From: Lysobacterales bacterium
GTDB taxonomy: Bacteria > Pseudomonadota > Gammaproteobacteria > Xanthomonadales > Marinicellaceae
DNA length: 64,000 nt
NCBI GenBank assembly: GCA_027057345.1
Contig: JALUIX010000058.1
Span: forward strand, 10,564-74,563
Reading direction: 5' to 3'
In this document: piece after piece, positions 1 through 54,070 of the stretch
Numbering within the stretch: position 1 is the stretch's first letter
Layout: each line of letters opens with the position of its first letter
The notes under the pieces: model-generated
Told to the model about the DNA's origin: nothing
The model's input: the letters and a program-made list of their open reading frames with translations, nothing else
The model's database searches: none
Translations under genes and position numbers: made by a program

Positions 1-1320
1 GGCAGTGAAAGCCTGATCTGGTTCAATGAGCGCTGGCCCCAGTACCTGGAAAAATATCACCCAACGGCCTTTTTACAGTGGCCCATTAGCACCGGCTGGC
101 AGCTGCAAAAGGGATACGCCTGCCTGAAGCAGCCTATTCACGCCACCCTGGCACGACGATTGGCGCAGGTGGTGGCACAGTGGCAGCGCGTCAAACATCT
201 GATCACCGCTGTGGCCGATGAATACCGCCAGCAACACCTGAAACCCGGCAGCGATATTGACCTGCTCGGGAGCGTGCAACAGGCCTCGCATTATCGACCC
301 GAAAACCTGCAGATTGGTCCCTGTGATCCCAAAAATACCTGTGGCGTGCACAGTCAGCTGGAACCCAGCCGGGCCTTGCTGGCCCTGTTTCCCAATCACC
401 TGTTGCTGGCCGACCAGCTCAACCTGGGCACCATTCGCCTGTGCTACGACGACGTGGGGTGGGAAGACCGCGAAGCCGGCCCAACGCATTTGAGCAATCC
501 GGCCGTGGCCAATTACTATGGCCACCTGGCCTTGAGTCTGAAAGGCTTTTATAACGACAAACTGGTGTTTGCCCGCCGCATCCAGTCGCTGCAAAAGTAC
601 CACTACCTGTTTGGTCGCAACGATGACAAGGTGTTGCAATTGAGCTGCCCTTTGCCCATTCTCGGCGAGCAGATTGTCACCCAACTACCTGAAGGCACGC
701 ATGGCTTGTTGCCCAATCGCCTCACGTTTCTGACCGCGGCCCGCGCCAATGCCGATGCCATTGTGAAGCATAACTGGACCGACGGAGAAGAGTGGCGTGA
801 CCGGCTGGCAGATGATTTACGGGTCAAAGTTCTGGCCAGCAACTCATTGGATGACGTCAGGTTGCTGGTGGAAGAAAAATTCATCGAACACACCAGTGCG
901 GTGCAGAAAACCCTTTATGGCTTGCTGCTGGAACAACAGCAAGCGCGCAGCGAAACTCAACAAGCCTTGCTTGACGCGGCCAGAAAGTATCACCTGTATC
1001 GGCAACTGGTACAGGCCATGGCCAGCGTGTTTATCACCGACAAACTCCTGTTCGACCCCGCTGTGCATGGCATTTTCTATGGTAGCGAACGCCTGCCGGA
1101 TAGAGCCATGCTGGCGGGTTTCTATCGCCAGCAAATTGCCATCCGCGAAGCCAACGCACGCTTTGAACGCTATCAGGAAAAGGCCGTGCAAACCTGGCTG
1201 AAACAGCCGCAGGATGAGGCTGGTGAAAACGAAAGGAAGGCTTTCAGGGCACTGGACCCGGTGTTACTGAAACTGCTGGAGCAGAAAAACCGCGCCAGCA
1301 ACCCTTTAGGGAAGCTCTGA
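1..1320 (+). CDS. hypothetical protein, C-terminal 439 aa (5' end lies left of the window)
   Basis: Frame 1 has no stop from base 1, so the ORF listed from 160 enters from the window edge. No family motif recognised. The final codons GKL+TGA are supplied by MITE copy A. Confidence 0.55.
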   Translation, partial: GSESLIWFNERWPQYLEKYHPTAFLQWPISTGWQLQKGYACLKQPIHATLARRLAQVVAQWQRVKHLITAVADEYRQQHLKPGSDIDLLGSVQQASHYRPENLQIGPCDPKNTCGVHSQLEPSRALLALFPNHLLLADQLNLGTIRLCYDDVGWEDREAGPTHLSNPAVANYYGHLALSLKGFYNDKLVFARRIQSLQKYHYLFGRNDDKVLQLSCPLPILGEQIVTQLPEGTHGLLPNRLTFLTAARANADAIVKHNWTDGEEWRDRLADDLRVKVLASNSLDDVRLLVEEKFIEHTSAVQKTLYGLLLEQQQARSETQQALLDAARKYHLYRQLVQAMASVFITDKLLFDPAVHGIFYGSERLPDRAMLAGFYRQQIAIREANARFERYQEKAVQTWLKQPQDEAGENERKAFRALDPVLLKLLEQKNRASNPLGKL

Positions 1321-1470
1321 TTGAATCGTGACACGGCATCTTGCGGCTTAAAATCGTCCATTTCTGCGTTGCAAACCTTCACAATAGCCCTGCTATTGCG
1401 TGCGGTTTGCACCTTGAACTGAACAATTTTACACTCCAATCTGCTCGCGCCAGATTCAATCAGAGCTTCC
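1310..1470 (+). mobile_element. MITE copy A (subfamily 1, full length, 161 bp)
   Basis: Terminal inverted repeats GGAAGCTCTGATTGAATC ... GATTCAATCAGAGCTTCC. Flanking 4-mers TTAG / TTGG. Near-identical to the copies at 4129, 15023, 16753, 24612, 52426 and 53891. Strand is orientation relative to my arbitrary consensus. Confidence 0.85.
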
Positions 1471-1543
1471 TTGGCTGATGACTCCGGCAAGCCCTGAGAA
1501 CGATTGCCCGACTGAGAAAAACTGTGTAAAGCTCAGGTCTTTT

Positions 1544-2200
1544 CTAAGGAGCCTCGGTAGAAGTTCTGCCCTCGCCAGAAAAATGGCCGTGCTGCAGGAA
1601 GTGCACTACTTCCCGTTGCACTTCGTGGTTTTTCAATAACCCCAGGTGATTGGTGTTGACGGTGATGTGGTGCTGGAGCCAGTCAACCTGTGTTTCTTCG
1701 AGCCCCACCGTGCCGTCATTGGGGCCGGAAAAGCGTTTGACCAACTTACCGATGCCCCACGGCCAAATGCCGGCAATCATACCCGCATCGCGCGCAGGCC
1801 GCTGCGTGGCAGCACCCGTGGTCAAGGGCTCGGTGGCATGACCCAGCAGCCATTTGTGCACTCCCAGCTTTTGCAGCCGCTGTGCCACCTGCGAGCCGCG
1901 TATGGGTGAGCCCAACATCACCAGCCGACCGGGTTTGCGAATGTCCTTGAGCGCCCGCAGGCTCAGTGTGCCACCCATGCTATGCGCCACCAGGTGCACC
2001 ACGTCTTCCGGTCGGGAATTTACAAAAGCGGCCAGTTGCCGAACCACGCTGTCCAGGTCACGGCGCACCGTCGGGTAGCCAAAGACATAAACCCGGTAAC
2101 CGGCCTGTTTCAAGGCCTTGGCCAGTGCCTGCATGGTCCACGGCCGCATCCACAAGCCATGCACCAGCACCACCGCTTCTGATGCCGGTTTTTCAGCCAT
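1544..2200 (-). CDS. alpha/beta-fold hydrolase (lipase/esterase-like)
   Basis: VVLVHGLWM oxyanion region and AHSMGG nucleophile elbow. Start moved to MAEKP (ATG at 2200), which overlaps the aspS stop by 8 nt. Confidence 0.75.
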
Positions 2201-4001
2201 TGGCGTCGCCTTCGTTCTGGTTCGGCTGCTCTTCCTCTTCCGGCAGCACCGCCTGTACATGCACTTCGGCCAGCTGCTGGGCCGGAATCGGTGAGGGCGC
2301 TTCTGTCAGCGGACAGCTGGCGCTGGCGGTTTTGGGAAAAGCAATCACTTCGCGAATGGAATCTACGCCGCACATGAGGGTGGCCAGGCGATCCAGACCA
2401 AAGGCAATGCCGCCGTGTGGCGGTGCACCGTATTCGAGGGCTTCCAGCAAAAAGCCGAATTTCTGCTCGGCTTCCTCAGGCGTAATGCCCAGCAAGTCAA
2501 ACACCGCGCGCTGCATGGCCGGGTTGTGGATACGAATGGAACCGCCGCCCAGTTCCACGCCGTTCATGACCATGTCATAGCCCTTGGACAAGGCCGCTTG
2601 CGGATTGGCACGCAGGCTTTCCACATCCCCGGTCGGTGCGGTGAATGGGTGGTGCAAGGCGTCCCAGCGTTTTTCGTCCTGGTTGTATTCAAACATGGGG
2701 AAATCCACAACCCACAACGGTTTCCACTGGCCTTCCAGCAAGTCCAGGTCTTCGCCCAGCTTGAGGCGCAGGGCGCCCATGTACTGGCTCACCGAATCGG
2801 CATCGCCGGCGCCAAAGAAAATCAGATCGCCATTCTCGGCTCCAGTGGCTTCAAGAATGGCCGTCAGGGCGGCTTCATCCAGAAACTTGACAATGGGGGA
2901 CTGCAAGCCGTCGCGACCCTGAGCCTTGTCATTGACCTTGATCCAGGCCAGGCCGCGGGCACCGTAACGGGCCACAAACGGGGCGTAATCGTCTATCTGT
3001 TTGCGGGTAAAACGCTCGCCACCTTTTGGCACCTTCAAAGCCACTACACGGCCATTGGGATCGGCCGCAGGCATGGCAAACACCTTGAATTCACTGTCCT
3101 TGACCGCATCGGCAATATCCACCAGTTCCAGCGGGTTGCGCAGGTCGGGTTTGTCTGAGCCGTAGCGGCGCATGGCTTCAGCCCAGGTCATGCGCGGGAA
3201 TGGGTTTGGCAAGTCCACATCCAGCACGGTTTTGAAAGTGTGACGGATGAGGTTTTCGGCCATTTCCAGCACGTCTTCCTGATCCACAAAGGCCATCTCG
3301 ATGTCCAGCTGGGTAAATTCCGGCTGGCGGTCGGCGCGCAGGTCTTCGTCGCGAAAACAGCGGGCAATCTGGTAATAGCGGTCCATGCCGGACATCATCA
3401 GCAGCTGCTTGAACAGTTGCGGGGATTGCGGCAAGGCATAGAACTTGCCTGGCTGGACGCGTGCCGGCACCAGAAAATCGCGCGCGCCTTCGGGCGTGGC
3501 CTTGGTGAGTACCGGCGTTTCAATGTCGAGAAAATCGCGCTCATCCAGGTGGTTGCGCAGTGCCCGTGTCAAGCGGGAACGCAGGCGAATGTTGTGCTGC
3601 ATCTGCGGGCGGCGTAAATCCAGGTAACGGTGTTTAAGGCGAATGGCTTCACCGGCTTCTTCGTCCAGCATAAACGGCAAGGGTTTGGACGGGTTGAGCA
3701 CTTCATAGTCGTCCACCACCACTTCGATGGCGCCGGTGCCTAACCGCTCGTTAACCTGCCCCTCGGGCCGGGGCCGGACGGTGCCACGCACACGCAGGCA
3801 GTATTCGTACCGGGCCTTGTCGGCAATGGCAAAGGCTGTTTCATTATCCGGCTCGACCACCACCTGCACAATGCCGCTGTGGTCGCGCAGGTCGATAAAA
3901 ATCACCCCGCCATGATCCCGGCGCTTGTCCACCCAGCCGCATAATTCAACCTGTTGGCCGAGTCTGGTTTCGTCTACCTGTCCGCATAAATCGCTGCGCA
4001 T
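2193..4001 (-). CDS. aspS: aspartate--tRNA ligase
   Basis: OB-fold N-terminus [19 protein letters not shown]; class II motifs [18 protein letters not shown] and GGGSIRIH. Start set at MRSDLCGQV (ATG 4001) rather than the longer ORF. Confidence 0.95.
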
Positions 4002-4128
4002 GAGTCTGGTTCCTGATATTGCGTTGGAAAACCGCACATGATACCGCCAATGGCCCCGTTTTTACAGGCCACAAGGCGGTTTTACGTGGTTTTTCAGCCT
4101 CTGCTGGCGCTGTGGGAGTGGCCTTTGA

Positions 4129-4287
4129 GGAAGCGCTGATTGAATCTGATGCGAGCAGATTGGAGTGTAAAATTGCTCAGTTCAAGGCGCAAACCGCACG
4201 CAATAGCAAGCTATTGTGAAGGTTTGCAACGCAGAAATGGACGATTTTACGCCGCAAGATGCCGTGTCACGATTCGATCAGGCTTCC
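4129..4287 (-). mobile_element. MITE copy B (subfamily 1, 159 bp)
   Basis: Same termini and core as copy A in inverted orientation. Flanks TTGA / TTAA. One-base deletion in the right-hand terminal repeat. Confidence 0.85.
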
Positions 4288-4769
4288 TTAAGAATAGTGA
4301 CGAAATTGCAGGGTTTGTGCGCAGCATCCAGTTGTTCAGCCAGAATCCGGGTCCAGGCCGTGCGGCAGGCGCCAGTGGAGCCCGGCAAGCAGAAAATCAG
4401 GGTGTTGTTGGCCAGCCCGCCCAAGGCCCGCGACTGAATGGTGGAAGTGCCAATTTCTTCGTAGGACAACTGACGGAACAACTCACCAAAACCTTCCACC
4501 TGCTTGTCCAGCAAGGGTTGAACGGCTTCGGGGGTCGAGTCCCGCCCGGAAAAACCAGTGCCGCCGGTGAGCAGCACCACGTCGGTGTTTTCATCGGCAA
4601 TGGCATCACTGACGAGTTTGCGAATCTGGTAAATGTCATCCTTGACAATATCATGGGCCAACACGCGATGGCCGGCGGCCCCGGCGGCTTCGCGCAAATA
4701 GGCGCCGGAGGTGTCGGTTTCCGGTGTGCGGGTGTCGCTGACTGTGAGCACGCGAATATTCAGGCTCAT
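4278..4769 (-). CDS. moaB: molybdenum cofactor biosynthesis protein B (MogA/MoaB family)
   Basis: LTVSDTR and LLTGGTGFSGRD motifs, 163 aa. The last codons (KEA) plus TGA lie inside MITE copy B. Confidence 0.8.
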   Translation of the reverse strand: MSLNIRVLTVSDTRTPETDTSGAYLREAAGAAGHRVLAHDIVKDDIYQIRKLVSDAIADENTDVVLLTGGTGFSGRDSTPEAVQPLLDKQVEGFGELFRQLSYEEIGTSTIQSRALGGLANNTLIFCLPGSTGACRTAWTRILAEQLDAAHKPCNFVTILKEA

Positions 4770-4793
4770 GCGAAAATCTCCAGGCTGGGCCGG

Positions 4794-5081
4794 TCAGTCG
4801 CCGGAAATGTAGTCCGGGCCTTTGCCGGCGGTTTTCTCGTACACGCCCTTGCCCACCTTGCGGTACTGGGTAAAGCCGTGTTTTTCCAGGTGACTCTGGC
4901 TATTCAGGCGCGCGCTGCCAGCGGCCACATTGGCCGCCGTGATGACCTTGCGCAGCGGCGCCTGGCAGCGGGGGCAGGCAATCAATGGCGCATCGGCCAT
5001 TTTCTGCATCACCTCAAAGCCCCGGGCGCACTGGTCGCACCCGGGGTGAGCGGCAAGCACCTGATAACGGTAAATGGGCAT
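4794..5081 (-). CDS. FmdB-family zinc-ribbon protein
   Basis: N-terminus MPIYRYQ with paired CxxC motifs (CDQC ... CPRC), 95 aa. Confidence 0.75.
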   Translation of the reverse strand: MPIYRYQVLAAHPGCDQCARGFEVMQKMADAPLIACPRCQAPLRKVITAANVAAGSARLNSQSHLEKHGFTQYRKVGKGVYEKTAGKGPDYISGD

Positions 5082-5086
5082 AGAGG

Positions 5087-6835
5087 TTAGTGGATTCCGT
5101 GCATTTTCTTCTTCAAGAATGGGGTCAGGGCCAACATAATCAAGCCCGCGGCCACTGGCAGCACGGTAAAAATCAGGAAGAAAGAACTCAAGCCATACTG
5201 GGCCGAAATGGTATCAATCAGGCTACCAGTCACGCCGGCCAGCTTGTTGGCCGCGGCATTTGATAGAAACCAGATGCCAAACATCAGGCCAACCAGTCGC
5301 GATGGCGACAATTTACTCACGTAGGACAGCCCCACCGGTGACAACGACAGTTCCCCCATGGTGTGAAACCAGTAGGCGATGACCAGAAACCAGAGGCTGA
5401 CCGAAGCAGTGGCCGCGCCCTTGGGAATGGTGGATGCGCCATAAGCCAGCACCGCAAAACCAGCCCCGAGCAAAAACAGGCCCAGAGCAAACTTAACCGG
5501 CGCCGAGGGGTTAAACCGGCTTTCCCAGATACGCGAAAATAAGGGCGCAAAGGCGATAATAAAGAACGAATTGAGAATCCCGAACCAGGAGGCAGCCACT
5601 TCCACCTCGCCGGCTATTTTGGCCTTCACCACGGCTTCAATCAGGTTGTCAAACTTGGGAATATCGGCATCTTCGATAATGCGGAACTTGTCTTCATCCA
5701 GCTTCAGCAGGTGCAGTTTGTCACCGGGTTTCAAGTCCGGATTACTGACCCGCACCTTGGTCACCACCTCGGTGTTATCAGCCTCATAGCTCACCTGGTA
5801 GGCCGTGGAGGTCAGCTGGTTGTAGACCATCCACAGGGCTATGATCCAGATCAGGGCAAAAGCCCCGGCCAGAATCAGGTTACTGATCGGAATGTAGCGG
5901 AAGGTGGACTTGAACAGCAGAAACAGCACGTAGGTGATGATCGCGATGGGCCCGAGAGTCAAGGCGGTGTTCACCCACACAAACCAGCTGGCCGCCTCAC
6001 CGGTCAGGACGCGTTGGGTGTAATCCTTGGCGAAGATGGTCATGGACCCGCCCGCCTGCTCAAAGGCCATCCAGAAGAAAATGGTAAAAAAGGCCAGCAC
6101 ACCAATCACTATCAGGCGGTCCCGCACCACGGTGGGGTTTTCTTCTTCCACTTCGGGGTCTTCGGGCTTGTCCACTTCGGCGAGGGCCGAGGGTTTGGCG
6201 CCAATGTCACCAAACATTTTCTGGGCAAAAATAAACTGCATCATACCCAGAAACATGAAAATGCCCGCCAGGCCAAAACCATAATGCCAACCCACGGTTT
6301 CGCCAATGTAGCCACACAGCAAAATGCCCAGAAAAGCACCGGCATTGATACCCATGTAAAAGATGGTGTAAGCGCCGTCCTTGCGATCACTGCCTTTGGA
6401 ATACAGGCCGCCGACGATGGAAGAAATATTGGGCTTGAACAGGCCGTTACCGGAAATCAGCAAGCCCAGCCCGGTGTAAAAGAAAAAGGGCGTGTCCATG
6501 GCCATGGAAGCGTGTCCCAGGGTCATCAACAAGGCGCCGATGATCACCGCCAGACGAAAGCCCAGCAGCTTGTCGGCCAGATAGCCGCCCAGAATCGGCG
6601 TCAGGTAAACCAGCCCGGTGTAGGTGCCATACAGGCTCAGGGCTTCCTCACGCGGCCAGCCCCAGCCATTGGCGGACAGGTCACTGACCAGAAACAGCAC
6701 CAGCAAGGCGCGCATGCCGTAATAACTGAAACGTTCCCACATTTCGGTAAAGAACAGAATAAACAACCCGGCCGGGTGATTCATCACTTCTACCGGCGGA
6801 ATGCCATGGCGGGACATGGTGGCACTTTGATTCAT
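5087..6835 (-). CDS. POT/PTR2-family proton-dependent oligopeptide transporter
   Basis: PTR2 signature FTEMWERFSYYGMRALLVLFL and multiple TM helices. Carries a ~70-aa hydrophilic insertion (YEADNTEVVTKVRV...KAKIAGEVE). Confidence 0.9.
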   Translation of the reverse strand: MNQSATMSRHGIPPVEVMNHPAGLFILFFTEMWERFSYYGMRALLVLFLVSDLSANGWGWPREEALSLYGTYTGLVYLTPILGGYLADKLLGFRLAVIIGALLMTLGHASMAMDTPFFFYTGLGLLISGNGLFKPNISSIVGGLYSKGSDRKDGAYTIFYMGINAGAFLGILLCGYIGETVGWHYGFGLAGIFMFLGMMQFIFAQKMFGDIGAKPSALAEVDKPEDPEVEEENPTVVRDRLIVIGVLAFFTIFFWMAFEQAGGSMTIFAKDYTQRVLTGEAASWFVWVNTALTLGPIAIITYVLFLLFKSTFRYIPISNLILAGAFALIWIIALWMVYNQLTSTAYQVSYEADNTEVVTKVRVSNPDLKPGDKLHLLKLDEDKFRIIEDADIPKFDNLIEAVVKAKIAGEVEVAASWFGILNSFFIIAFAPLFSRIWESRFNPSAPVKFALGLFLLGAGFAVLAYGASTIPKGAATASVSLWFLVIAYWFHTMGELSLSPVGLSYVSKLSPSRLVGLMFGIWFLSNAAANKLAGVTGSLIDTISAQYGLSSFFLIFTVLPVAAGLIMLALTPFLKKKMHGIH

Positions 6836-7090
6836 TGGTTTAACCCTCGCTACTGGTGGCGTTTAACAACAGAAAAAAAGCAAATCTGAATTTTTCTCTC
6901 ACTTAATCAGGGAAGGCACGGACTCGGTTTATGGTCTCAATCCTCACACCTGATCGGAAAAAAGGCGCTCAAGGGCCGGAAAAACTTTGGCCTGACGCGC
7001 AAAGCGTTTTATCATAGCACAAGCCCGAAAACCGCCAGCCATGGCGCCTGGCCCTGATGCCAGACAACTGAACCTTTGCAGGAAACCACC

Positions 7091-9421
7091 ATGCCTTCTT
7101 TTTTCTCTCGCCTGATCCTTGCCGCCAGCCTGCTTTCGCCGCTGGCTCAGGGTGCCAACACCACCTGGCAGGACAAGTTCCGCCAACTGGACGAAGTGCT
7201 GCCCACGCCCAACGAACAACGCACCGCCAGTGGCGCACCGGCGCACGCCTATTGGCAACAACGCGCCGATTACGTCATTGATGTGACACTGGATGAGAAA
7301 AACAAACGCCTCACCGGCTCCGAACTCATCACCTACCACAATAATTCACCCGATGCCCTGCCGTACCTATGGGTGCAACTGGATCAGAACCGCTACGCCC
7401 ATCATTCACGCGGCCTGCTGGCGCAAACCGCGCCGAATTTTGACAAATTTCCCTATTCGAACCTGACGGCCTTGCTGACCCTGGAAAAGCACAACGGCGG
7501 GGTCCACATCACCGCGGTCAAGGACAACCAGGGCCAGCCACTGGCACACACCATCAATGGCACCATGATGCGCATTGACCTGCCCCAGGCGCTGAAACCT
7601 GGGCACAGCACGCAATTCAGTATTGACTGGTGGTACAACGAGCTGGACGCCACCAAAGTGCGGGCGCGCGGCGGCTATGAATGTTTCGAAAAAGACGGCA
7701 ACTGCATTTTTGAAATTTCGCGCTGGTACCCGCGCATGGCCGCATACATGGACGTCACCGGCTGGCAGAACAAACCCTTCCTGGGCAGTGGCGAATTCAC
7801 CCTCGACATGGGCAACTTTGTGGTCAACATCACAGTGCCGGAAGACCACGTGGTGGCTGCTACCGGCGTGTTGCAAAACCACGAGGAGGTACTTGACAGC
7901 ACCCAGCGGCAACGCCTGCAAAAAGCCAGAACCGCCAAAAAACCGGTGTTTGTGGTCACGCCAAAAGAAGCCCGGCGAAATGAAAAGTCCCGCCCCAAAG
8001 GCAACAAAACCTGGCTGTTCAAGGCCGATAATGTGCGTGATTTTGCCTGGGCCTCCTCACGCAAGTTCATCTGGGACGCGCAAGGTTACCAACAAGGCGA
8101 TGGCTCGGTTTTGGCCATGAGCTTTTACCCCAACGAGGCCGAACCCCTGTGGAGCCGCTATTCCACCCCGGCCATCATCCACACCATGAAGGTCTATTCC
8201 AAATACACTTTTGATTATCCCTGGCCGGTGGCGCAATCGGTCAATGGCCCGGTGGGCGGCATGGAATACCCCATGATCTCCTTCAACGCGCCGCGCCCGG
8301 AAGAAGACGGCACCTACTATGGCCAAGCCGGCAAAAACAAACCCTGGAAACACAGCAAATACGGCCTGATTTCCGTGATTATCCACGAAGTGGGTCACAA
8401 CTACTTTCCCATGGCCGTGAATTCCGATGAACGTCAGTGGACCTGGATGGACGAAGGACTGAACACCTTTCTGCAGTTTCTGGCCGAGCAGGAATGGGAA
8501 GAAGACTACCCCAGCCGCCGTGGTGAACCGCGCGATATTGTCGACTACATGGTGTCGGACAATCAGGTGCCCATCATGACCAATTCCGAGTCCCTGTTGC
8601 AGTTTGGCAATAACGCCTACGCCAAACCGGCCACCGCCTTGAACATTCTGCGTGAAACCATTCTCGGCCGGGAACTATTCGATTACGCCTTTCGTGAGTA
8701 CGCCAGGCGCTGGAAATTCAAGCACCCCATGCCGGCGGATTTTTTCCGCACCATGGAAGACGCCTCGGCCGTGGACCTGGACTGGTTCTGGCGTGGCTGG
8801 TTCTATACCACCGATCACGTGGACATTGGCATCAACGGCGTGCACCTGTACCAGATGGACACAGGCAACCCGGAAATCGACAAGGCCAACCGCAAAAAAG
8901 ACAAAGCCGAAGAGCCTGTTTCCATCACCACACAGCGCAACCGAGGCATGCCGCGACTGGTGGACAGCCACCCGGAGCTGAAAGATTTTTATAACGATTT
9001 TGATGAAGAATTCGACGTCTTGCCCACAGACATCGAAGACTACAAGGACAAACTGGACGCCCTGGAACCCGATGAACGCCTGCTGCTGAAAACCCGCCGC
9101 AATTTCTACGTGGTGGATTTTGAAAACCACGGTGGGCTGGTGATGCCCATCATCCTGAAAATCACCTACGACGATGGCAGCAATGAAATCCTGCGCATCC
9201 CGGCAGAAATCTGGCGCAAAAACCCCAGGCGCGTTTCCAAACTGTTGATGACGCCGGAAAACCGCCACATCACGGCGCTGGAAGTGGACCCCTACCTGGA
9301 AACCGCGGATGCCAACCTGAACAACAACCGCTGGCCGGCCAAACTGATCAAGTCCCGTTTCCAGCTCTGGAAAGAAGAAAAACACAAAAACGCCATGCAA
9401 AAAAAGCGCGGCGACAAATAG
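7091..9421 (+). CDS. secreted M1-family (gluzincin) metallopeptidase
   Basis: HEVGHNYF ... WMDEGLN (HEXXH-18-E). N-terminal signal peptide MPSFFSRLILAASLLSPLAQG. Start moved from TTG 7076 to ATG 7091. Confidence 0.85.
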   Translation: MPSFFSRLILAASLLSPLAQGANTTWQDKFRQLDEVLPTPNEQRTASGAPAHAYWQQRADYVIDVTLDEKNKRLTGSELITYHNNSPDALPYLWVQLDQNRYAHHSRGLLAQTAPNFDKFPYSNLTALLTLEKHNGGVHITAVKDNQGQPLAHTINGTMMRIDLPQALKPGHSTQFSIDWWYNELDATKVRARGGYECFEKDGNCIFEISRWYPRMAAYMDVTGWQNKPFLGSGEFTLDMGNFVVNITVPEDHVVAATGVLQNHEEVLDSTQRQRLQKARTAKKPVFVVTPKEARRNEKSRPKGNKTWLFKADNVRDFAWASSRKFIWDAQGYQQGDGSVLAMSFYPNEAEPLWSRYSTPAIIHTMKVYSKYTFDYPWPVAQSVNGPVGGMEYPMISFNAPRPEEDGTYYGQAGKNKPWKHSKYGLISVIIHEVGHNYFPMAVNSDERQWTWMDEGLNTFLQFLAEQEWEEDYPSRRGEPRDIVDYMVSDNQVPIMTNSESLLQFGNNAYAKPATALNILRETILGRELFDYAFREYARRWKFKHPMPADFFRTMEDASAVDLDWFWRGWFYTTDHVDIGINGVHLYQMDTGNPEIDKANRKKDKAEEPVSITTQRNRGMPRLVDSHPELKDFYNDFDEEFDVLPTDIEDYKDKLDALEPDERLLLKTRRNFYVVDFENHGGLVMPIILKITYDDGSNEILRIPAEIWRKNPRRVSKLLMTPENRHITALEVDPYLETADANLNNNRWPAKLIKSRFQLWKEEKHKNAMQKKRGDK

Positions 9422-9462
9422 CCATCACTCCCCTGCTATCATTCCATCATTCAAGGAAACCC

Positions 9463-10146: not shown

Positions 10147-10246
10147 TTGTGCCAGGATGACCGGGCGTGAATCCTGCATGGACTCACCAGGTCAGTCACA
10201 AAAAAGTGCTGACCCACACTTTGGCTTGTCCCAACAGGAAGACTGG

Positions 10247-10738: not shown

Positions 10739-10862
10739 GGACACCTCACAATCAACGGTTATCACACATCAATCAGATTATCTTGCCAGGACGGGGTCAA
10801 CCGGGGTTTTTCCGGGATAAATGGCAAAATGCAAGCAATTCTGTTTCCCAAACAGGCCGGTG

Positions 10863-11327: not shown

Positions 11328-11392
11328 TGTTCTGTCCTCCAGTGTGAGTGGTGAGTATGCGCCTGAACCCCTCGTGAGTTCAAAGCGTGGGT

Positions 11393-15022: not shown

Positions 15023-15183
15023 GGAAGCTCTGATTGAATCTGGCGCGAGCAGATTGTAATGAAAAATTGTTCAGTTCAAGGCGCAAATCGCACGCAATAG
15101 CAAGGCTATTGTGAAGGTTTGCAACGCAGAAATGGACGATTTTACGCTGCAAGATGCCGTGTCACGATTCGATCAGAGCTTCC
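15023..15183 (-). mobile_element. MITE copy C (subfamily 1, 161 bp)
   Basis: Perfect 4-bp direct duplication TTAG (15019-15022 and 15184-15187). Lies 58 bp upstream of the plsB ATG. Confidence 0.9.
15053..15079 (-). promoter_or_regulatory. candidate outward-facing sigma70 promoter inside MITE copy C, directed at plsB
   Basis: Minus strand reads TTGAAC-N15-TACAAT, about 90 nt upstream of the plsB ATG. Motif match only. Confidence 0.3.
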
Positions 15184-16913: not shown

Positions 16914-18248
16914 TTAAAGAATGTACCGGGACAGGTCTTCGTCTTCCACCAGCTGGTTCAAAACCTTGTCCACGTAGGCACGATCAATCACGTACTCCTG
17001 CCCGGCGTTGTCTGCGCCTTCAAAGGAAATGGCCTCCAGCAGGCGTTCCATAACGGTGTGCAACCGGCGTGCGCCGATGTTTTCGGTGCGTTCGTTGACC
17101 GACCATGAATATTCGGCAATGCGCTGGATGCCGTCTTCGGTAAAGCGCAACTGGACGCCTTCGGTACCGATCAAGGCCTGGTACTGCTCGGTCAGTGAGG
17201 CTTCCGGCTCGGTCAGAATGCGCTTGAAGTCTTCCGCAGTAAGGGCGCGCAACTCCACCCGGATGGGCAGGCGGCCCTGCAGTTCCGGAATCAGGTCGGA
17301 GGGCTTGGCCAGGTGAAAGGCGCCAGAAGCAATAAACAGCATGTGATCGGTCTTGACCGGGCCGTGACGGGTGCTGACGGTGGAGCCTTCAATCAGTGGC
17401 AACAGATCACGTTGCACGCCTTCACGCGACACGTCTCCGCCACCGGCTTCGGCGCGCTTGCAGACCTTGTCCAGTTCATCAATAAAAACTATGCCACTTT
17501 GCTCGGCCAGTTCAATGGCCTGTTGCTTGATTTCTTCTTCGTTAACCAGCTTGTTGGCTTCTTCCTCGATCAGTTGCGGGCGGGCGGCGGCGATTTTCAG
17601 TTTTTTGCGCTGTTTTTTGGCCCCGGCCAGGTTTTCAAACAGGCCTTGCAGCTGGGTGGTCATTTCTTCCATGCCTGGCGGCGCCATGATTTCCACGCCC
17701 ATGGACAGCGACACATCCAGTTCAATTTCCTTTTCGTCCAGTTCGCCGGCGCGCAGTTTCTGGCGGAATTTTTCCCGCGTGCGGCTGGTGTTTTCGTCCT
17801 CAGCGACCACCTCGCCAGGAAAAACCGGCGCCGGGCGCGGCAGCAATGCATCCAGTATCCGCTCCTCGGCGGCTTTTTCGGCCTGTGCCCGGACCTTGGC
17901 CGTGGCCTTTTCGCGTGTGAGCTTGATGGCACTGTCCACCAGGTCGCGAATGATGGATTCCACGTCTTTGCCAACATAGCCCACTTCGGTGAATTTGGTC
18001 GCTTCCACCTTGATGAACGGGGCTTCTGCCAAACTGGCCAGACGGCGCGCAATTTCGGTTTTGCCCACGCCGGTGGGGCCAATCATGAGGATGTTCTTGG
18101 GGGTGATTTCCCGCCGCAGTTCTTCGGGCAGTTGCATGCGCCGCCAACGGTTACGAAGCGCGATGGCCACGGCGCGTTTGGCATCGGCCTGGCCGATGAT
18201 GTGACGGTCCAGTTCGTGAACAATTTCACGTGGGGTCATGTTGGACAT
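16914..18248 (-). CDS. hslU: ATP-dependent protease ATPase subunit HslU
   Basis: [17 protein letters not shown]; P-loop [15 protein letters not shown]; C-terminal DLSRYIL. Confidence 0.97.
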
Positions 18249-18886: not shown

Positions 18887-19045
18887 GGAAGCTCTGATTG
18901 AATCTTAACGAAGCAGGTTATGCCTGAAGTGGTCGAGAACAAGGCGAAGTTTGTAGCCAATAGCAAGCTATTGGCAAGGACTTCAACGCAGTTATCGGAC
19001 ATTTCAGGTGTGAGAAGCAAGTTCATGATTCGATTAGAGCTTTCC
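18887..19045 (-). mobile_element. MITE copy H (subfamily 2, 159 bp)
   Basis: Same terminal repeats (GGAAGCTCTGATTGAATC ... GATTCGATTAGAGCTTTCC) and the same apical CAATAGC..GCTATTG hairpin as subfamily 1. The arms between them differ. Left flank TTAG; right flank not duplicated. Confidence 0.75.
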
Positions 19046-19112
19046 CAGGCAATGGGGGCAGGCGGAGTCTTTTTCAAGCCGAAACCTGGTTTCTGTCTGT
19101 CAGCCTGCCCAC

Positions 19113-24611: not shown

Positions 24612-24772
24612 GGAACCTCTGATTGAGTCTGGCGCGAGCAGATTGTTGTGAAAAATTGTTCAGTTCAAGGCGCAAACCGCACGTAATAGCCAGGCTATTG
24701 CGAAGGTTTGCAACACAGAAATGGACGATTTTACGCCGCAAGATGCCGTGTCACGATTCAATCAGAGGTTCC
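24612..24772 (-). mobile_element. MITE copy E (subfamily 1, 161 bp)
   Basis: Termini GGAACCTCTGATTGAGTC ... GATTCAATCAGAGGTTCC; the ends carry matching AC/GT variants. Flanks TCAG / TTAC are not a clean duplication. Confidence 0.85.
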
Positions 24773-25817
24773 TTACCGGCCCTGGCCGTCGCAGCGCTTC
24801 CAGCGACCAGCGTGGGTGGATATCAATGGCCCAACCGGTTTTGCGCTCGCCGGCCTGCAAGCGCAAGGCACCGGCCAGAGCGATCATGGCACCGTTATCT
24901 GTGCACCAGTCCAGCGGTGGAAAATACACCTGGCCGCCGTGTTGCTGCGTCATGGCCTGCAAACGCTGGCGCAAGGCGCTGTTGGCGCTGACGCCACCGG
25001 CCACTACCAGGCGCTTCAAACCGCTTTGCTTGATGGCCCGCTGACATTTTCGCACCAACGTGTCCACCACCGCTTCCTGAAACCCGGCCGCAATATCGGC
25101 CTTGAGTTGTTCCCGTTCGGCCTCACTGGTGGCAGCTTGCCGGCTTTTCTCCCAGGTCACGCGGGTAAAGGTCTTGAGACCGGAAAAGCTCATGTCCAGT
25201 CCCGGGCGATTTATCATGGGGCGCGGAAAAGCAAACCGGCCGGAGTCGCCTTTTTTGGCCAGCTCGGCCAGGGCCTTGCCACCCGGATAGGGCAGTCCCA
25301 GCAATTTGGCCGTTTTGTCAAAAGCCTCACCGGCGGCGTCATCCAGCGTGTCACCCAGAATGCGGTAATCACCCAGTTCGCGCACGGCCACCAACAGGCT
25401 GTGGCCACCGGAAACCAGTAGGCTGAGAAACGGGAATGGTGGCGGGTCATCGCCCAGCAAAGGCGCCAGCAAATGGCCTTCCATGTGATGCACTTCCACG
25501 GCTGGAATGTCCAACGCCCAAGCCAGACTCTGGCCCAGGCTGGCCCCCACCAGCAAGGCCCCGGCCAGGCCCGGCCCGGCTGTCCAGGCAATGCCGTCCA
25601 GGTCATTCAGGCTCAAGTCGGCCTGTTTCAAGGTGGCCTGTATCAGTGGCACCGCCTTGCGCACGTGATCGCGCGATGCCAGCTCCGGCACCACACCGCC
25701 ATGGCGGGCGTGCAAGGCAATCTGTGAATGCAGTTGCTCGGCCAAGAGGCCGTTTTCGGTGTCATAAATGGCGATGCCTGTTTCGTCACAGGATGACTCG
25801 ATGCCGAGGACTTTCAT
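24762..25817 (-). CDS. tsaD: tRNA N6-adenosine threonylcarbamoyltransferase TsaD
   Basis: [23 protein letters not shown] and VSGGHS blocks. The last codons (NL) plus TGA lie inside MITE copy E. Confidence 0.95.
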
Positions 25818-34221: not shown

Positions 34222-34697
34222 ACGAAAACATTATCGATTTATTGTTGTACCTGTTCGAGCATTACCTGTACGACAACCCCGAACAGGCCATCGACCGCTC
34301 ACAGGTGCACAACAACCTGCGTGAAGCCGGCTTCTCTTCTCCGGCCATTGACAAGGCCTTTGACTGGCTGGAAAGCCTGTCCAGCCATTACGACACGGTG
34401 CAACTGAACGAGAACATCACCGCCCGTTCACTACGGGTTTTTTCCGACAGCGAGCAGGAAAAGCTGGACCGACAGTGTCAGGATTTCATTTACTACCTGG
34501 AAAACACCGGCATTCTGGACGCGGCGCGACGGGAAATTCTGATTGATAGCGTCATGATGCTGGAGATCGAGGACATTAACACCGAAGACCTGCAGTGGAT
34601 TGCCCTGATCGTCCTGTTTTCACAGCCAGGTCAGGAGCACGCATTTGCCACCCTGGAAAGCCTGCTGTTTGATTCACCAGTCAACTACGAACACTAG
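34218..34697 (+). CDS. smg: Smg (DUF494) protein
   Basis: MNENIIDLLLYLFEHYL; conserved dprA-smg-topA order; ATGA overlap with dprA. Its TAG stop is the left flank of MITE copy I. Confidence 0.9.
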   Translation: MNENIIDLLLYLFEHYLYDNPEQAIDRSQVHNNLREAGFSSPAIDKAFDWLESLSSHYDTVQLNENITARSLRVFSDSEQEKLDRQCQDFIYYLENTGILDAARREILIDSVMMLEIEDINTEDLQWIALIVLFSQPGQEHAFATLESLLFDSPVNYEH

Positions 34698-34764
34698 GGA
34701 AGCCCTGATCGAATCATGAACTCGCCTCTCATACCTGAAATGTCCAGGTTCGATCAGCGCTTCC
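34698..34764 (+). mobile_element. MITE copy I (subfamily 2, internally deleted, 67 bp)
   Basis: GGAAGCCCTGATCGAATCATGAACTCGCCTCTCATACCTGAAATGTCC matches one arm of copy H, then joins directly to the other terminal repeat (GGTTCGATCAGCGCTTCC). Flanks CTAG / CTGG. Confidence 0.7.
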
Positions 34765-34836
34765 CTGGCGCCGGCGCTAACCCATTGGCCCGTCCGCCCA
34801 GGGGCGAAAGCGGGCAGACCAAGAGAACACACCACC

Positions 34837-42899: not shown

Positions 42900-42901
42900 G
42901 T

Positions 42902-45001: not shown

Positions 45002-45124
45002 GGTTGTTCTCGTTTGGTGTTTAAACCGGTACCGGACTGCCTCATCCCCAATCACTGGGCCATTAATCACTAGTGGGGTGTTTTGGGATAAGACGCAATC
45101 GTCTACGTGGTTTTCAAGAAGCTA

Positions 45125-46857: not shown

Positions 46858-47276
46858 TGGTTTTCTGCCTGAATCACACTGACTGTCAAACGAGCCACGG
46901 CCACGCGTTTATCGTCTTGATTACGAATATCGATGTCCCAAACCTGGGTGCGTCTGCCCACATGCACTGGCCGGGCACAGGCATGGACTGTGCCCTCACG
47001 TTGCGCCCGCAGGTGGTTAATGTTGAGTTCCAGCCCCACGGCCTCCTGGTCCTCTTCCAGCATGAGGTAGGCGCCGATGCTGGCCACGGTCTCGGCCAGG
47101 GCAGCACTGGCGCCACCGTGCAACAGGCCAAAAGGCTGACGGGTGCATTCCTTCACCGGCATGCTGGCACACAGGCTGTCAGCATTCAATTGGGTTAGCT
47201 GAATGTTGAGGCATTGCGCCAGTCCCGTGGTGGCAAACTGGTTGAGTTGTTCAAGGCTGATTTCTTTTTTCCACAT
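46854..47276 (-). CDS. PaaI/YbdB-type hotdog-fold thioesterase
   Basis: QPFGLLHGGASAALAETVAS block, 140 aa. Confidence 0.8.
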   Translation of the reverse strand: MWKKEISLEQLNQFATTGLAQCLNIQLTQLNADSLCASMPVKECTRQPFGLLHGGASAALAETVASIGAYLMLEEDQEAVGLELNINHLRAQREGTVHACARPVHVGRRTQVWDIDIRNQDDKRVAVARLTVSVIQAENH

Positions 47277-47331
47277 GCTCGGGTTGCCTGTGCTGTGTCG
47301 CGCTTTGGTTTTCTTGGATCAGAGTAGCTAA

Positions 47332-47351
47332 GGAAGCTTTCGAGAGCTGCC
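47332..47351. repeat. possible 20-bp MITE remnant (two fused terminal-repeat stubs)
   Basis: CTAA-GGAAGCTTTC/GAGAGCTGCC-TTAA. Each 10-mer matches the MITE terminus at 8/10. The right-hand TTA is the stop of the DUF3465 gene. Confidence 0.3.
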
Positions 47352-47816
47352 TTAATGATAAACCCGGTTTTTATGACGTATCCACCCTCCGGCATGACGG
47401 CCTGCGGGATCAGCGTGAGTCCAATGCAACAGCCCGCCCTTGGCGTTGTTTTCAAACTGGCCATACACTTCCAGGGTATCTCCAGCCTGCAGGGGTACCA
47501 CCGGCGCCAGATCAATATTGTGAGCCACCAGTAGCGTGTGGTCGCGACCCGGTACCTGCATCAACCATCGCTGGTGCCGACTGCCCTGATTATCAGTTTT
47601 AAGCACCTTGAGCACGGTTCCCTGTACCCGTACCATGCGACCGTCTTGCCAGCTGGCAGGCGCAGCGATTGCACCGTCATTACTGCCAGGGACAACCCGA
47701 TTAGACCAGGGCCAGCTGTTGCTATTCTGCTTTAGCAGCCAGGTAGCTGCCAGCAGCAGCACCAACAACAGCCATTTTTTCTTTTTTATCAGGCGCTGCA
47801 GAACCCGTCCATTCAT
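47352..47816 (-). CDS. DUF3465-family protein
   Basis: Signal/TM N-terminus. HQRWLMQV...LLVAHNIDLAP...GDTLEVYGQFENNAKGGLLHWTHADP...GGW pattern. Confidence 0.75.
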   Translation of the reverse strand: MNGRVLQRLIKKKKWLLLVLLLAATWLLKQNSNSWPWSNRVVPGSNDGAIAAPASWQDGRMVRVQGTVLKVLKTDNQGSRHQRWLMQVPGRDHTLLVAHNIDLAPVVPLQAGDTLEVYGQFENNAKGGLLHWTHADPAGRHAGGWIRHKNRVYH

Positions 47817-47822
47817 TGGCTG

Positions 47823-48728
47823 TCAATCGCCCAAGGATTGCCAGGCAGCGATGCCTCCGGCCAGGTTATGCACATTGCTAAAGCCTTTCTTGCGAAAGAA
47901 TTCTGCCGCACCCTGGCTGGTATTGCCCATGTTGCAGACGAAAACCAGTGGCGTGTCCTTGGGCATCTGTTCGATTTCGGCAATGCTGTTTTTGTCCAGC
48001 CTGCGCGCGCCCGGAACGGTACCAGCTGCCATTTGCTGTTCGGATCGCACGTCATAAATTTTGAAGTTCTCACCCGCATCCAGTCTTTGTTTCAGCGCCT
48101 GGGCACTGAGTTGATTAACCGGTGCCGGTTCATTCGGGTTGCGAATTACCAGACCTGAGCCCTGGATATCATCCACCCAGTCGATTTCGATGCCATTTGC
48201 CCGTTTGGCGGTACCGATATCCATGTAGATGGGAATGCCATTGGCATCAGCCACTATCTCATAGCCCTTGGGTTGCTCCACACTGAAACGGGTGTTGAAC
48301 TGATCATCAATATTCAGGTACAGCACTTGCTCGCCCAGTTCTTCGAGCCCGGATTCGATGTGTTTTCGGGCCTCATCGGTGATGGTGATTTCAGGTGCCG
48401 TGCGATCCGGTGGTGCCAGCCCAAGCAGTTCATGCAACTCGCCAGTATTGTACATTTCTGTAATAATATCGTTTCCACCCACCAGTTCACTGTCCACATA
48501 AAGCTGCGGGATGGTGGGCCACTGCCCGTACTGCTTGATGCCTTCCCGGATGGACTGATCTTCCAGTACATTGACGGTGGCAAAGTCCTCGCCCAGGACG
48601 TCTCGCAAAATGCGCACGGTGTTGGCAGAAAAACCGCACATGGGCGCTTGCGGTGTGCCTTTCATAAACAGCACCACCGGCTGACTCTTGACCATCTGGT
48701 CAATTTTTTCCATTACTTTATCTGTCAT
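47823..48728 (-). CDS. three-domain fusion: monothiol glutaredoxin (CGFS) / Cys-less IscA-like domain / rhodanese
   Basis: Grx4 block [17 protein letters not shown] ... WPTIPQLYV. The middle block [11 protein letters not shown] ... [21 protein letters not shown] aligns to A-type carriers but has no Cys. The C-terminal rhodanese has FVCNMGNTS. Start at MTDKV (ATG 48728, AAGGAA upstream). Confidence 0.8.
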
Positions 48729-48741
48729 TTTTCTGTTCCTT

Positions 48742-51222
<2,481 letters not shown>

Positions 51223-51256
51223 TCAATTCAGGCGTATATTGCCGGTAAGTAACTGC

Positions 51257-52345
51257 TCAGCCATCTTTGATCAGGTCGTGTTTCACGTGAAACACCCGAC
51301 TTTCCTTGTGCACCGGAAATTGATTGGCAATCACCTCCGGATGCAGACTGCTGGCAAAAACCTGCGTATCTATGGTTTCGAATTGGTTAAATACGTGCTG
51401 CAGGTGTTCCTGATCCAGTTCCGCGTCCAGGTCATCCAGACACACCACCGGCCAGCGCCCGGTGGATTCATAAATCATCCGAACCTGGGTCAGGTACATT
51501 TCGATGGCCAGCATTTTTTTTTGTCCGCGCGATAAAATTTTCCGTGCCTCTCCTGGCCCTGCCATGATTCGCACGTCCATGCGATGCGGCCCCACTGTGA
51601 TGGCACCATAGCGGACATGCTGCTCATCGTGATGTAAAAGCTCACCCAGTAATTCTTTTTCTTTTTTCCACCCACTGCGGTAGTGCAATTGAATATCTGC
51701 TGCCTGCAACAAGCCGCTATTCCAACGTGAACCACACTGTTCAAGCAGTCGCTCAAAAACGTCGCGTCGCTGGCCATCCAAAGCGGTACCGGTCTCGGCC
51801 AGTTGCTCATACCAAAAATGACGGTCAGTTAAACTGCCGTCGCCTTGTTTCAACATGGCGTTGGCCTGTTGCAGCAGGTAGCGGTATTTTTTCCAGATAA
51901 GCAAGTGATCGGGTTTCACGTGAAACGTCAGCCAATCCAGAAAACGCCGTTTAGTTTCCGGCGGGGAATCCACGAAGTGATAAGAGCCACTGTGGATGGC
52001 CACCACAGGCAACAGCAGCGAAATGGGCGTAATGCCTTTGAGGGTCTTTTCCTGGAGGCGTGCCTTGACAACACCCTGCTTGTCTTTAGACACGCCAAGT
52101 CGGTATTGGTTGCCCGCCTGGAGGCTTTCAGCAAAGACCGACAAGGATGTCTGTCCGTGGGTAATCATGTTCTGTATGCCACCGGGGCGAAAGGACTTGC
52201 CGCTGGACAAAAAATAGATGGCTTCAAGGAAAGAGGTTTTTCCAATGCCATTGGGCCCGGTCAGGACATTGAGCCCATCAACAGGTTGCCAATCACACTC
52301 GTGAAGACTGCGAAAATGACGTGTGCGCAAGCGCTTCAGGTGCAT
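51257..52345 (-). CDS. recF: DNA replication/repair protein RecF
   Basis: Walker A GPNGIGKTSFLEAI; LSRGQKKML signature; position between dnaN and gyrB. Confidence 0.95.
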   Translation of the reverse strand: MHLKRLRTRHFRSLHECDWQPVDGLNVLTGPNGIGKTSFLEAIYFLSSGKSFRPGGIQNMITHGQTSLSVFAESLQAGNQYRLGVSKDKQGVVKARLQEKTLKGITPISLLLPVVAIHSGSYHFVDSPPETKRRFLDWLTFHVKPDHLLIWKKYRYLLQQANAMLKQGDGSLTDRHFWYEQLAETGTALDGQRRDVFERLLEQCGSRWNSGLLQAADIQLHYRSGWKKEKELLGELLHHDEQHVRYGAITVGPHRMDVRIMAGPGEARKILSRGQKKMLAIEMYLTQVRMIYESTGRWPVVCLDDLDAELDQEHLQHVFNQFETIDTQVFASSLHPEVIANQFPVHKESRVFHVKHDLIKDG

Positions 52346-52425
52346 GAACCTTCTCAGCGAGTTTCAGAGTAAACGGAGGCCGCCGGATTAGCTCAAAATT
52401 GACTGACTAATCCAGTTCTATCTAA

Positions 52426-52585
52426 GGAGCTTCTGATTGAATCTGATGCGAGCAGATTGTCGTGAAAAATCGTTCAGTTCAAGGCGCAAACCGCACGCAA
52501 TAACCAGCTATTGTGAAGGTTTGCAACGCAGAAATGGACGATTTTACGCCGCAAGATGCCGTGTCACGATTCAATCAGAGGCTCC
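52426..52585 (-). mobile_element. MITE copy F (subfamily 1, 160 bp)
   Basis: Perfect duplication CTAA (52422-52425 and 52586-52589). The right-hand CTA is the dnaN stop codon (TAG on the minus strand). Lies between dnaN and recF. Confidence 0.9.
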
Positions 52586-53692
52586 CTAAAGGCGCAAAGG
52601 CATAATGATCTGGCGACAGCGATTGTTATCCGGGTCTCTCACCACGCAGCTGCTGGTGGCGTCCTTGAAACTGAACAACACATTTTCACTGTCCAGGCTG
52701 TTAATCGCATCCAGCAGGTAATTGACGTTAAACCCGGTACCCAGCTCAGTGATATCGGTTTCCACCGCCAGTTCTTCTTCCGATTCTTCCTGTTCAGGGT
52801 TGTATCCGATCAAAACAAGTTTATTAGGAGAAATTTTAAACTTAACGCCCTTGTATTGTTCATTGGACAGGATCGAAGCACGCTGGAACGCAGACCGGGC
52901 CTGCTCCTTGTTAACCTGCATGGTGAGATCGATGTCCAGGGGAATCACCAGGTTGTAGTCGGGAAAACGACCATCGATGAGCTTGGAGGTGAAGGCGGTT
53001 TGGCCCAGGGTGGCGCTGATATGGTTGCGGCCAATGTTGATCTGGATAAATTCCGGCGCGTCCTTGAGTAGTTTCTGTAACTCCAGCACCCCTTTGCGGG
53101 GAATAATGATCTGGTGTTTGACGCTTTCGCTATGCGAAAAGGGCGCCTCAGCCAGGGCCAGTCGATGACCGTCGGTGGCCACTGTGCGAATGGTGTTTTC
53201 ATCCAGCTCCAGCAGCAGCCCGTTGAGAAAATACCGCACGTCCTGGCTGGCCATGGCAAAAGCGGTTTGCTGTAACAGGCGGATCAGGTCATCAGTCTTT
53301 ACCTGGAAGCTGTCCACGGCCTGAACCCCTTCAATCAAGGGGTATTCATCAGCGGGCAACGAAGCGAGGCTGAATCGGCTTCTGTTGGCGCTGACGGTAA
53401 CCTTGGGGCTGTTTTCAGCCTGGGTGATGGAAATCAGCGAACCATCGGGCAACGCCTTGCAAATATCAAACATTTTACGGGCCGGTATGGTGGTTTCACC
53501 AGGCTGGTGAACTTCCACCGGCAAGCCACTGCGCATTTCCACTTCCAGGTCGCTACCGGTCACGGTCAGGTGGTCGTTTTCGGCTTTAAAGCAAAAGTTT
53601 CCCAGAATGGGCAGTGTCTGTTTCTTTTCGATCACCCCGATGGTTTGTCCCAGGGCGTGGAGTAAGGTTTCTCGCTGTGCTGTTATTTTCAT
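52586..53692 (-). CDS. dnaN: DNA polymerase III beta sliding clamp
   Basis: 368 aa; MKITAQRETLLHAL ... C-terminal IIMPLRL; position after dnaA. Confidence 0.97.
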   Translation of the reverse strand: MKITAQRETLLHALGQTIGVIEKKQTLPILGNFCFKAENDHLTVTGSDLEVEMRSGLPVEVHQPGETTIPARKMFDICKALPDGSLISITQAENSPKVTVSANRSRFSLASLPADEYPLIEGVQAVDSFQVKTDDLIRLLQQTAFAMASQDVRYFLNGLLLELDENTIRTVATDGHRLALAEAPFSHSESVKHQIIIPRKGVLELQKLLKDAPEFIQINIGRNHISATLGQTAFTSKLIDGRFPDYNLVIPLDIDLTMQVNKEQARSAFQRASILSNEQYKGVKFKISPNKLVLIGYNPEQEESEEELAVETDITELGTGFNVNYLLDAINSLDSENVLFSFKDATSSCVVRDPDNNRCRQIIMPLRL

Positions 53693-53733
53693 TATCTTTA
53701 TAAAAACCAGTAGTTATAGGCTTGGAACAAGTC

Positions 53734-53856
53734 CGTGGATAAGCGCTTAAGTGATTGATTTTAAGGCAAAAGAAGCGCCGAGTGCAAAAGGATTAAGCTG
53801 TGGATAAGCTGTGTTTAAGTTTAGCGGCTGTTTTTATCCCCGACTTATCCACAGCT
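53734..53856. promoter_or_regulatory. DnaA-box cluster in the dnaA-dnaN spacer
   Basis: Two perfect TTATCCACA boxes in inverted orientation (53799-53807 as TGTGGATAA; 53845-53853), each inside a perfect 13-bp inverted repeat AGCTGTGGATAAG / CTTATCCACAGCT. Also an 8/9 box (53734-53742) and a 7/9 box (53834-53842). An AT-rich stretch abuts the dnaN ATG. Confidence 0.7.
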
Positions 53857-53890
53857 TGCCCACAGGTATTGAGCCATGTTGTTCATCTAG

Positions 53891-54052
53891 GGAAGCTCTG
53901 GTCGAATCGTGACACGGCGCCTTGCGGCGTAAAAGCGCCCATTTCTGCGTTGCAAACCTTCACAATAGCTTGTGTTATTGCGTGCGGCTTGCGCCTTGAA
54001 CTGAACGATTTTTCACGACAATCTGCTCGCGCCAAATTCAATCAGAGCTTCC
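53891..54052 (+). mobile_element. MITE copy G (subfamily 1, 162 bp)
   Basis: Perfect duplication CTAG (53887-53890 and 54053-54056). Lies 18 bp after the dnaA stop, between dnaA and the DnaA-box cluster. Confidence 0.9.
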
Positions 54053-54070
54053 CTAGTGACAATACAAGGC

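Follow-up and report, generated by a model that had tools for sequence, protein, structure and literature searches.

A MITE (miniature inverted-repeat transposable element) sits at and around the ends of genes in a 64,000-nt stretch of a Lysobacterales metagenome-assembled genome (MAG; GCA_027057345.1), where its insertion has, at six gene ends, either copied the stop codon of the adjoining gene or supplied a new one. This stretch, referred to below as the window, is C58:10564-74563 (contig JALUIX010000058.1) of an assembly of 2.45 Mb in 158 contigs with 56.5% G+C. Ancestral comparison revealed that the stop codons pre-existed and served as targets, and that the protein tails encoded by the element are true replacements. 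Specificity for the 4-bp motif YTAR, together with a gradient of survival or insertion at gene 3′ ends, very probably accounts for the landings on stop codons without any preference for such codons.

The element is approximately 160 bp long (157-163 bp) and is bounded by 18-nt inverted termini, GGAAGCTCTGATTGAATC. Within the window this terminus gave 18 matches against 0.05 expected, bounding nine elements and one stub (Table 1). Genome-wide there were 882 matches and 374 inward-facing pairs, of which 353 were full-length (150-172 bp). The element is thus short, carries terminal inverted repeats, lacks coding capacity and is present in many copies, as the definition of a MITE requires. Folding of the copy at 15023..15183 gave a single long hairpin (-85.5 kcal/mol, z = -11), and the MITE mask covers about 73 kb, or 3% of the genome. 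Neither an Rfam search of the window nor a search of a plasmid collection with the element returned a match. The family is a new and very abundant MITE that behaves as known MITEs do, with no new mechanism.

Genes were called with a purpose-written hexamer-model gene finder; it yielded 2044 genes (coding density 88%), among them those expected in the window. A gene stop lies inside the target duplication on 81 element sides (79 elements), and 46 genes end inside an element: 24 at +11, 11 at +15, eight at +22 and one each at +1, +4 and +40. Ancestral states were assessed from 1710 reciprocal-best orthologs (median 80% identity) in a congener, G001, that has no copy of the element, giving only three weak terminus matches in 2.22 Mb (essentially its whole genome). 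A second member of the genus, G002, carries approximately 340 termini. Genes with their stop in the duplication had the same end residue as the G001 ortholog in 41 of 62 cases (66%), compared with 840 of 1359 controls (62%). Among genes that stop inside the element, the end was shared in only 7 of 34 (21%), the replacement tails being L-G/R-K-L, GSSD/GSAD or K/R-EALIES; typically 1-18 ancestral residues had been swapped, with a maximum of 34. Furthermore, 24 of the 41 G001 orthologs of stop-in-duplication genes had a pyrimidine-TAA/TAG stop, a feature seen in 28% of the control genes (odds ratio 3.7, p = 7e-5). At dnaN the G002 locus is an empty site, CTT TAG GTGGAACTGGATTAG, and in the window the element is flanked by two copies of that TTAG. 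It is these ortholog ends, the Y-TAR stops and the empty dnaN site that identify the stops as earlier targets and the tails as real replacements. An earlier sequence-only reading of the window had proposed that the duplicated YTAR regenerates the stop and leaves the protein untouched, and that the other tails come from the element. Both proposals were borne out; identical C-terminal residues in orthologs lacking the element would have told against the second, but only the 21% of genes given above kept the end of their ortholog.

That reading had also placed six gene ends of the window on such stops, those of dnaN, hslU and smg in the duplication and those of a 5′-partial coding sequence (CDS), a MoaB-like gene and tsaD inside the element, and all of its coordinates were correct. 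Pfam matches support five of the gene names (DnaN, HslU-type AAA, TsaD, DUF494 (Smg) and MoCF_biosynth), while the 5′-partial CDS had no Pfam match. All six match the genome-wide pattern exactly, in that duplication stops keep the C-terminus and element stops replace it. The C-termini of HslU (...DLSRYIL) and Smg (...SPVNYEH) are unchanged relative to the MITE-free congener and the congener, respectively, and that of DnaN (...IMPLRL) is the same in both congeners. In contrast, the 5′-partial CDS ends ...QKNRASNPLGKL where its MITE-free ortholog ends ...QKNQATAQPGSEPAS, the MoaB-like protein ends ...TILKEA rather than ...TVLKGRQQHQ, and the TsaD tail differs from the ...LNRPEAEG of the MITE-free congener. 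The MoaB-like gene runs into its element in the other frame, and a 1-nt deletion in the terminus that it meets brings its stop forward.

Table 1. Copies of the MITE in the window, their flanking tetranucleotides and the gene ends beside them.
Positions	Element	Left flank	Right flank	Gene and stop codon	Relation of gene end to element
1310..1470	MITE copy	TTAG (1306-1309)	TTGG (1471-1474)	5′-partial CDS, stop 1318-1320	Reads TTA GGG AAG CTC TGA; ends LGKL-TGA (+11 class)
4129..4287	MITE copy, right terminus with 1-nt deletion (GGAAGC-CTGA)	TTGA	TTAA (4288-4291)	MoaB-like gene 4278-4769 (minus), stop 4278-4280	Reads AAG GAA GCC TGA; ends KEA-TGA
15023..15183	MITE copy, target duplicated	TTAG	TTAG		Touches no stop codon
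16753..16913	MITE copy, target duplicated	TTAA	TTAA	hslU (minus), stop 16914-16916	Stop is the first three bases of the right TTAA
18887..19044	MITE copy, second subfamily (same termini, different arms)	TTAG	CCAG		Off any stop codon
24612..24772	MITE copy, degenerate flanks	TCAG	TTAC	tsaD 24762-25817 (minus), stop 24762-24764	Reads GTA AGG AAC CTC TGA; ends RNL-TGA (+11 class)
34698..34764	MITE deletion derivative, 67 bp	CTAG	CTGG	smg (DUF494), stop 34695-34697	Stop is the TAG of the left CTAG
52426..52585	MITE copy, target duplicated, recF-dnaN spacer	CTAA	CTAA	dnaN (minus), stop 52586-52588	Stop is the CTA of the right CTAA
53891..54052	MITE copy, target duplicated, dnaA-dnaN spacer	CTAG	CTAG	dnaA (minus), stop 54071-54073	Element lies 14 nt downstream of the stop
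59619..59650	Solitary terminus stub	TTAG (59615-59618)		Gene ending 59611, TAA stop	Stub lies 3 nt past the stop

YTAR was present on both flanks in 173 of the 353 full copies and in 462 of all 706 flanks; the two flanks were identical in 159 copies, 138 of which had YTAR. In pairs such as TTAG...TTAG and CTAA...CTAA both members read in the same direction, so the 4-bp target duplication is real and lies outside the inverted repeat. Two further hallmarks of a MITE, a direct target-site duplication and polymorphic insertion with empty sites in relatives, were therefore both found. The target preference is wider than YTAR and roughly palindromic, with T favoured at -3 and A at +6/+7; T is over-represented 3 nt ahead of the site and A 3-4 nt beyond it. 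At the Y and R positions C and G are preferred, and CTAG is over-used relative to its availability (C 50% vs 29%; G 60% vs 34%). With flanks written in the direction of the element, CCAG is the commonest other than YTAR (48 of 706), three times as frequent as CTGG (15) and mostly paired with CTAG on the opposite side; flanks of this kind occur in the window at 18887-19048 and 34694-34768. The excess of CCAG indicates a directional T-to-C change adjoining the terminus. Very-short-patch repair was considered as the cause of the CTAG-to-CCAG change and was dropped, as the genome has no Vsr gene.

The sequence-only reading held, in addition, that the element lands specially on stop codons. For a survey of available targets, the 353 copies were excised with one duplication each, genes were re-called and every YTAR site was classified, with each site counted once. 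There were 319 distinct occupied sites, 80 of which (25%) fell on TAA/TAG stop codons, and stop YTAR sites were occupied more often than all intergenic YTAR sites (odds ratio 2.5-2.65; p = 4e-9 for 2.5). Along the gene, occupancy rose from 1.0% at sites upstream of the stop by over 30 codons to 2.5% at 11-30 codons before it, 16.9% in the last 10 codons, 17.7% on the stop itself and 20.0% at 0-10 nt downstream. It then fell to 14.7% at 11-20 nt, 12.4% at 21-40 nt, 10.7% at 41-80 nt, 7.7% at 81-160 nt and 3.6% beyond 160 nt. Compared with sites within -30 to +20 nt, stop sites were occupied at 17.7% vs 17.4% (odds ratio 1.02, p = 0.93). Restricting the analysis to homology-confirmed genes (1818 with a G001 homolog) gave 19.9% on the stop vs 20.1%, 23.0% and 15.8% in the neighbouring bins (odds ratio 1.01), and with the extended target matrix as a covariate the stop term had an odds ratio of 1.33 (confidence interval 0.92-1.92). 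Since stop sites are occupied like their neighbours, the enrichment is that of a smooth gradient around gene 3′ ends, with no preference for stop codons as such; stops are hit because they account for much of the YTAR available in the 3′-end zone. The claim of special landing was therefore set aside, the excess over all intergenic YTAR having no counterpart among neighbouring YTAR (odds ratio 1.0). Nor does the MITE qualify as a stop-codon-specific insertion element, which should hit stops above equivalent neighbouring sites (odds ratio 1.01-1.02).

Convergent genes displayed the same 3′-end gradient, with 24% occupancy within 20 nt vs 2% beyond 120 nt, so that selection and local targeting are not separable on this basis. 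The data show the anatomy of the element, the counts, the ancestral states and the frame bias directly; that purifying selection, rather than local targeting, is the cause of the gradient we infer. There is a small chance that the peak within ~30 nt of gene ends arises from active local targeting instead, for instance through a feature of terminating transcription or translation or of DNA structure at 3′ ends. If this were true, local targeting and self-capping termini together would make the element a transposon specialised for cost-free life at gene ends, and not a mere remnant of selection. Several points weigh against the account based on YTAR specificity and a gradient. The gene calls came from our own hexamer finder and not from a standard annotator, although the outcome is unchanged in the homolog-restricted set. 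Under the null model all YTAR (or matrix-weighted) sites count as equally available, and the gradient between convergent genes could fit local targeting, or could reflect unannotated features in long spacers. Finally, no transposase with these termini was found, which leaves the duplication as the sole basis of the family assignment.

We consider it unlikely that a transposase or host factor targets stop codons, or sites of translation or transcription termination, beyond YTAR. Such targeting would fit the 2.5- to 2.65-fold excess over intergenic YTAR overall and a gene-end gradient that is still seen in spacers of convergent genes, which should hold no promoters. However, stop occupancy (17.7-19.9%) equals that of the last 10 codons and of the 10-13 nt immediately downstream (p = 0.93-1.0, odds ratio 1.0), and with the extended target matrix the interval around the stop term includes 1.

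The termini differ in how readily they close each reading frame. A TGA is found at +9-11 in 665 of the 706 termini (94%), at +13-15 in 430 (61%), the lower figure arising because position 13 is T/C polymorphic, and at +20-22 in 330 (47%), all of them at the GTGA end. Closure of every frame is reached by 22 nt in 92 termini (13%) and by 45 nt in 313 (44%), whereas random sequence matched in composition would reach it in 1% and 11% of cases, respectively; some frames are not closed anywhere along the element. The +15 stop is used only where the flanking TAR is no stop, and several of these cases keep YTAR on the other flank (TCAG vs TTAG, CCAA vs CTAA). In these, the duplication stop was evidently lost and the element TGA acts as a backup. 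Within the last ten codons, YTA/R-frame sites, which are closed at +11, were occupied in 22 of 78 cases vs 5 of 96 for the nYT/AR frame (odds ratio 7.2, p = 4e-5); no frame bias was found elsewhere in coding sequence. The persistence of an insertion thus depends in part on rapid closure, and the 7-fold depletion of the weakly closed frame among insertions that survive in the last ten codons indicates that selection has acted on insertions. It had been suggested that the termini close all three frames and that this capping lets the elements sit harmlessly at gene ends. The first suggestion stands for the +9-11 TGA but not for closure of all three frames, which only the 13% achieve within 22 nt; the second stands as a filter on insertions, but not as a designed or general property of the termini.

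A more far-reaching proposal, that the terminus and target motif were shaped by element-level selection for self-capping as an adaptation to colonise a compact genome, seems doubtful to us. The high retention of the +9-11 TGA speaks for it, as does the fact that survivors favour the frame closing at +11 and the end closing at +22 (frame-b endings: eight at the GTGA end vs one at the other, p = 0.04). In other genera of the order, too, termini of a related kind (GGAAGCTCTGAATAAATC and the like) have open reading frames (ORFs) beside them whose stops lie at 0, +11 or +15. Yet position 13 varies freely between T and C, so that 39% of termini lack the +15 stop, one end is without a nearby third-frame stop, and few termini close every frame within 22 nt. 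Moreover, the frame bias reflects selection on insertions and not on the element sequence, and all-frame stops have often been noted in unrelated bacterial MITEs (PMC2229807, PMC6382973).

In the explanation that we favour, a non-autonomous MITE inserts at YTAR and duplicates it. Each YTAR presents TAA or TAG on both strands, such that any TAA/TAG stop preceded by a pyrimidine can serve as a legal target, and the duplication leaves a full stop on the gene side and the protein unchanged. Where the element lands in the last few codons, the gene runs into the terminus and stops there. The stop lies at +11 in the YTA/R frame, giving tails such as LGKL, and at +22 in the nYT/AR frame, at one element end only, giving KEALIES; where the flanking TAR is not a stop, it lies at +15 and gives GSSD. 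The gradient peaks within ~30 nt either side of gene 3′ ends, deeper insertions and those in slow-closing frames having been largely lost.

Approximately 6% of genes in this genome end on a stop that was copied or supplied by a transposon, including dnaN, hslU and tsaD. For annotation, this means that many of the short, odd C-terminal tails in the lineage (LGKL, GSSD, KEALIES) are element-derived. The family also provides a quantified example of how a TA-containing target motif enables a MITE to become very dense within a compact genome, and the data give a frame-resolved measure of tolerated C-terminal alterations.

The search for a parent element gave no match to PF01609 (DDE_Tnp_1) in this genome and two congeners, bearing in mind that the interiors of insertion sequences (IS) are generally unassembled in the MAG. 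Widely spaced terminus pairs were rejected as a parent IS because they proved to be two MITEs flanking ordinary genes. Solitary termini were rejected as truncated, nested or deleted MITEs, with no IS interior adjoining any of them. The related termini in other genera of the order belong to 27-bp palindromes and to elements of 98-514 bp, and the regions beside them contained no transposase. About 26 contig ends (e.g., C121 5′, C31 5′, C104 5′ and C109 3′) carry terminal pieces, ~127 nt long, of other repeats, of which there are at least four kinds. These comprise an IS481-like element (TGTCGGGTCTCG) flanked by NYTARN, an IS3-like one, a third that codes for the C-terminus of an IS5-type transposase (RGIATRYAKNTASFLAAVH) but has termini that differ from those of the MITE, and a fourth that always lies directly after a terminator-like hairpin.

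Further arrangements of the MITE were seen elsewhere in the genome. A 2.8-kb segment at C20:833-3649, which contains some N, has two perfect outward termini, a CTAA/CTAA duplication, an 815-aa ORF and a MITE, and could be a composite, MITE-flanked mobile segment. Insertions of one MITE into another recur at the internal TTAA of one arm (...TTGTTCAGTTTAA/GGGAAGC...), for example at C15:27534, C20:3649, C60:5405, C80:2888, C90:18666 and C139:15903. Two abutting termini form 27-bp palindromes at C40:5611-5638 and C21:10110-10137, similar to those in other genera of the order. The centre of the MITE (~42-120, the hairpin tip) matches short repeats with 75-82% identity in relatives of other genera, G015, G021, G020 and G034 (L003-L006), where the termini are absent; the core hairpin may accordingly predate the mobile element or be more widely distributed.

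We found no earlier statement in the literature that a YTAR duplication regenerates stop codons, although 3′-end overlaps and all-frame stops have been reported for other MITEs. Stop regeneration follows directly from the motif, because YTAR contains TAA/TAG. The IS701 family has also been described as using YTAR, and the MITE terminus begins with GGAAG, which presumably resembles the IS5 inverted repeat. The MITE differs from IS5 in having no transposase gene, and the rest of its terminus is unlike the IS ends found at contig ends here; the parent may belong to IS5, IS701 or another family. The likeness to IS5 lies in the 4-bp duplication, which in Escherichia coli has the consensus 5′-YTAR-3′ (PMC5009759).

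The QMITE1 and QMITE2 elements of Coxiella burnetii share 1-50 bp with functional genes at their 3′ ends, altering the C-terminal residues with little change in protein length, and every affected functional gene has its insertion at the 3′ end (PMC5896051). The 3′-end overlap and altered C-termini are common to QMITEs and the MITE described here. Sequence, termini and target differ, however, no duplication-regenerated stop has been described for QMITEs, and the copy number here (~350) is far higher relative to genome size.

Correia elements use a TA target. The Correia (NEMIS) elements of Neisseria, RUP and MITEAba12 are, like the MITE here, short, mostly intergenic elements with inverted termini that are occasionally fused to gene 3′ ends, but their targets and parent IS families are different. 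Stops in all frames have been noted for Correia (NEMIS), RUP, CIR and MITEAba12 (PMC2229807, PMC6382973), whereas the present MITE closes the frames incompletely and unequally at its two ends.

Rickettsia palindromic elements (RPE) are typically in-frame insertions within genes (PMC10969869). Genes that seemed to span whole copies of our MITE arose mostly as artefacts, the start codon giving the longest frame having been chosen, with one real case, C157:586-747, in which residues 168-222 of a 290-aa protein are encoded by a full MITE in frame. Its ortholog in the MITE-free congener has 240 aa. This gene also ends on a +22 tail of the KEALIES type from a second copy. The C157 copy is an RPE-like in-frame insertion; as hairpin repeats readable in frame the two are alike, but in-frame internal MITEs are a rare exception here.

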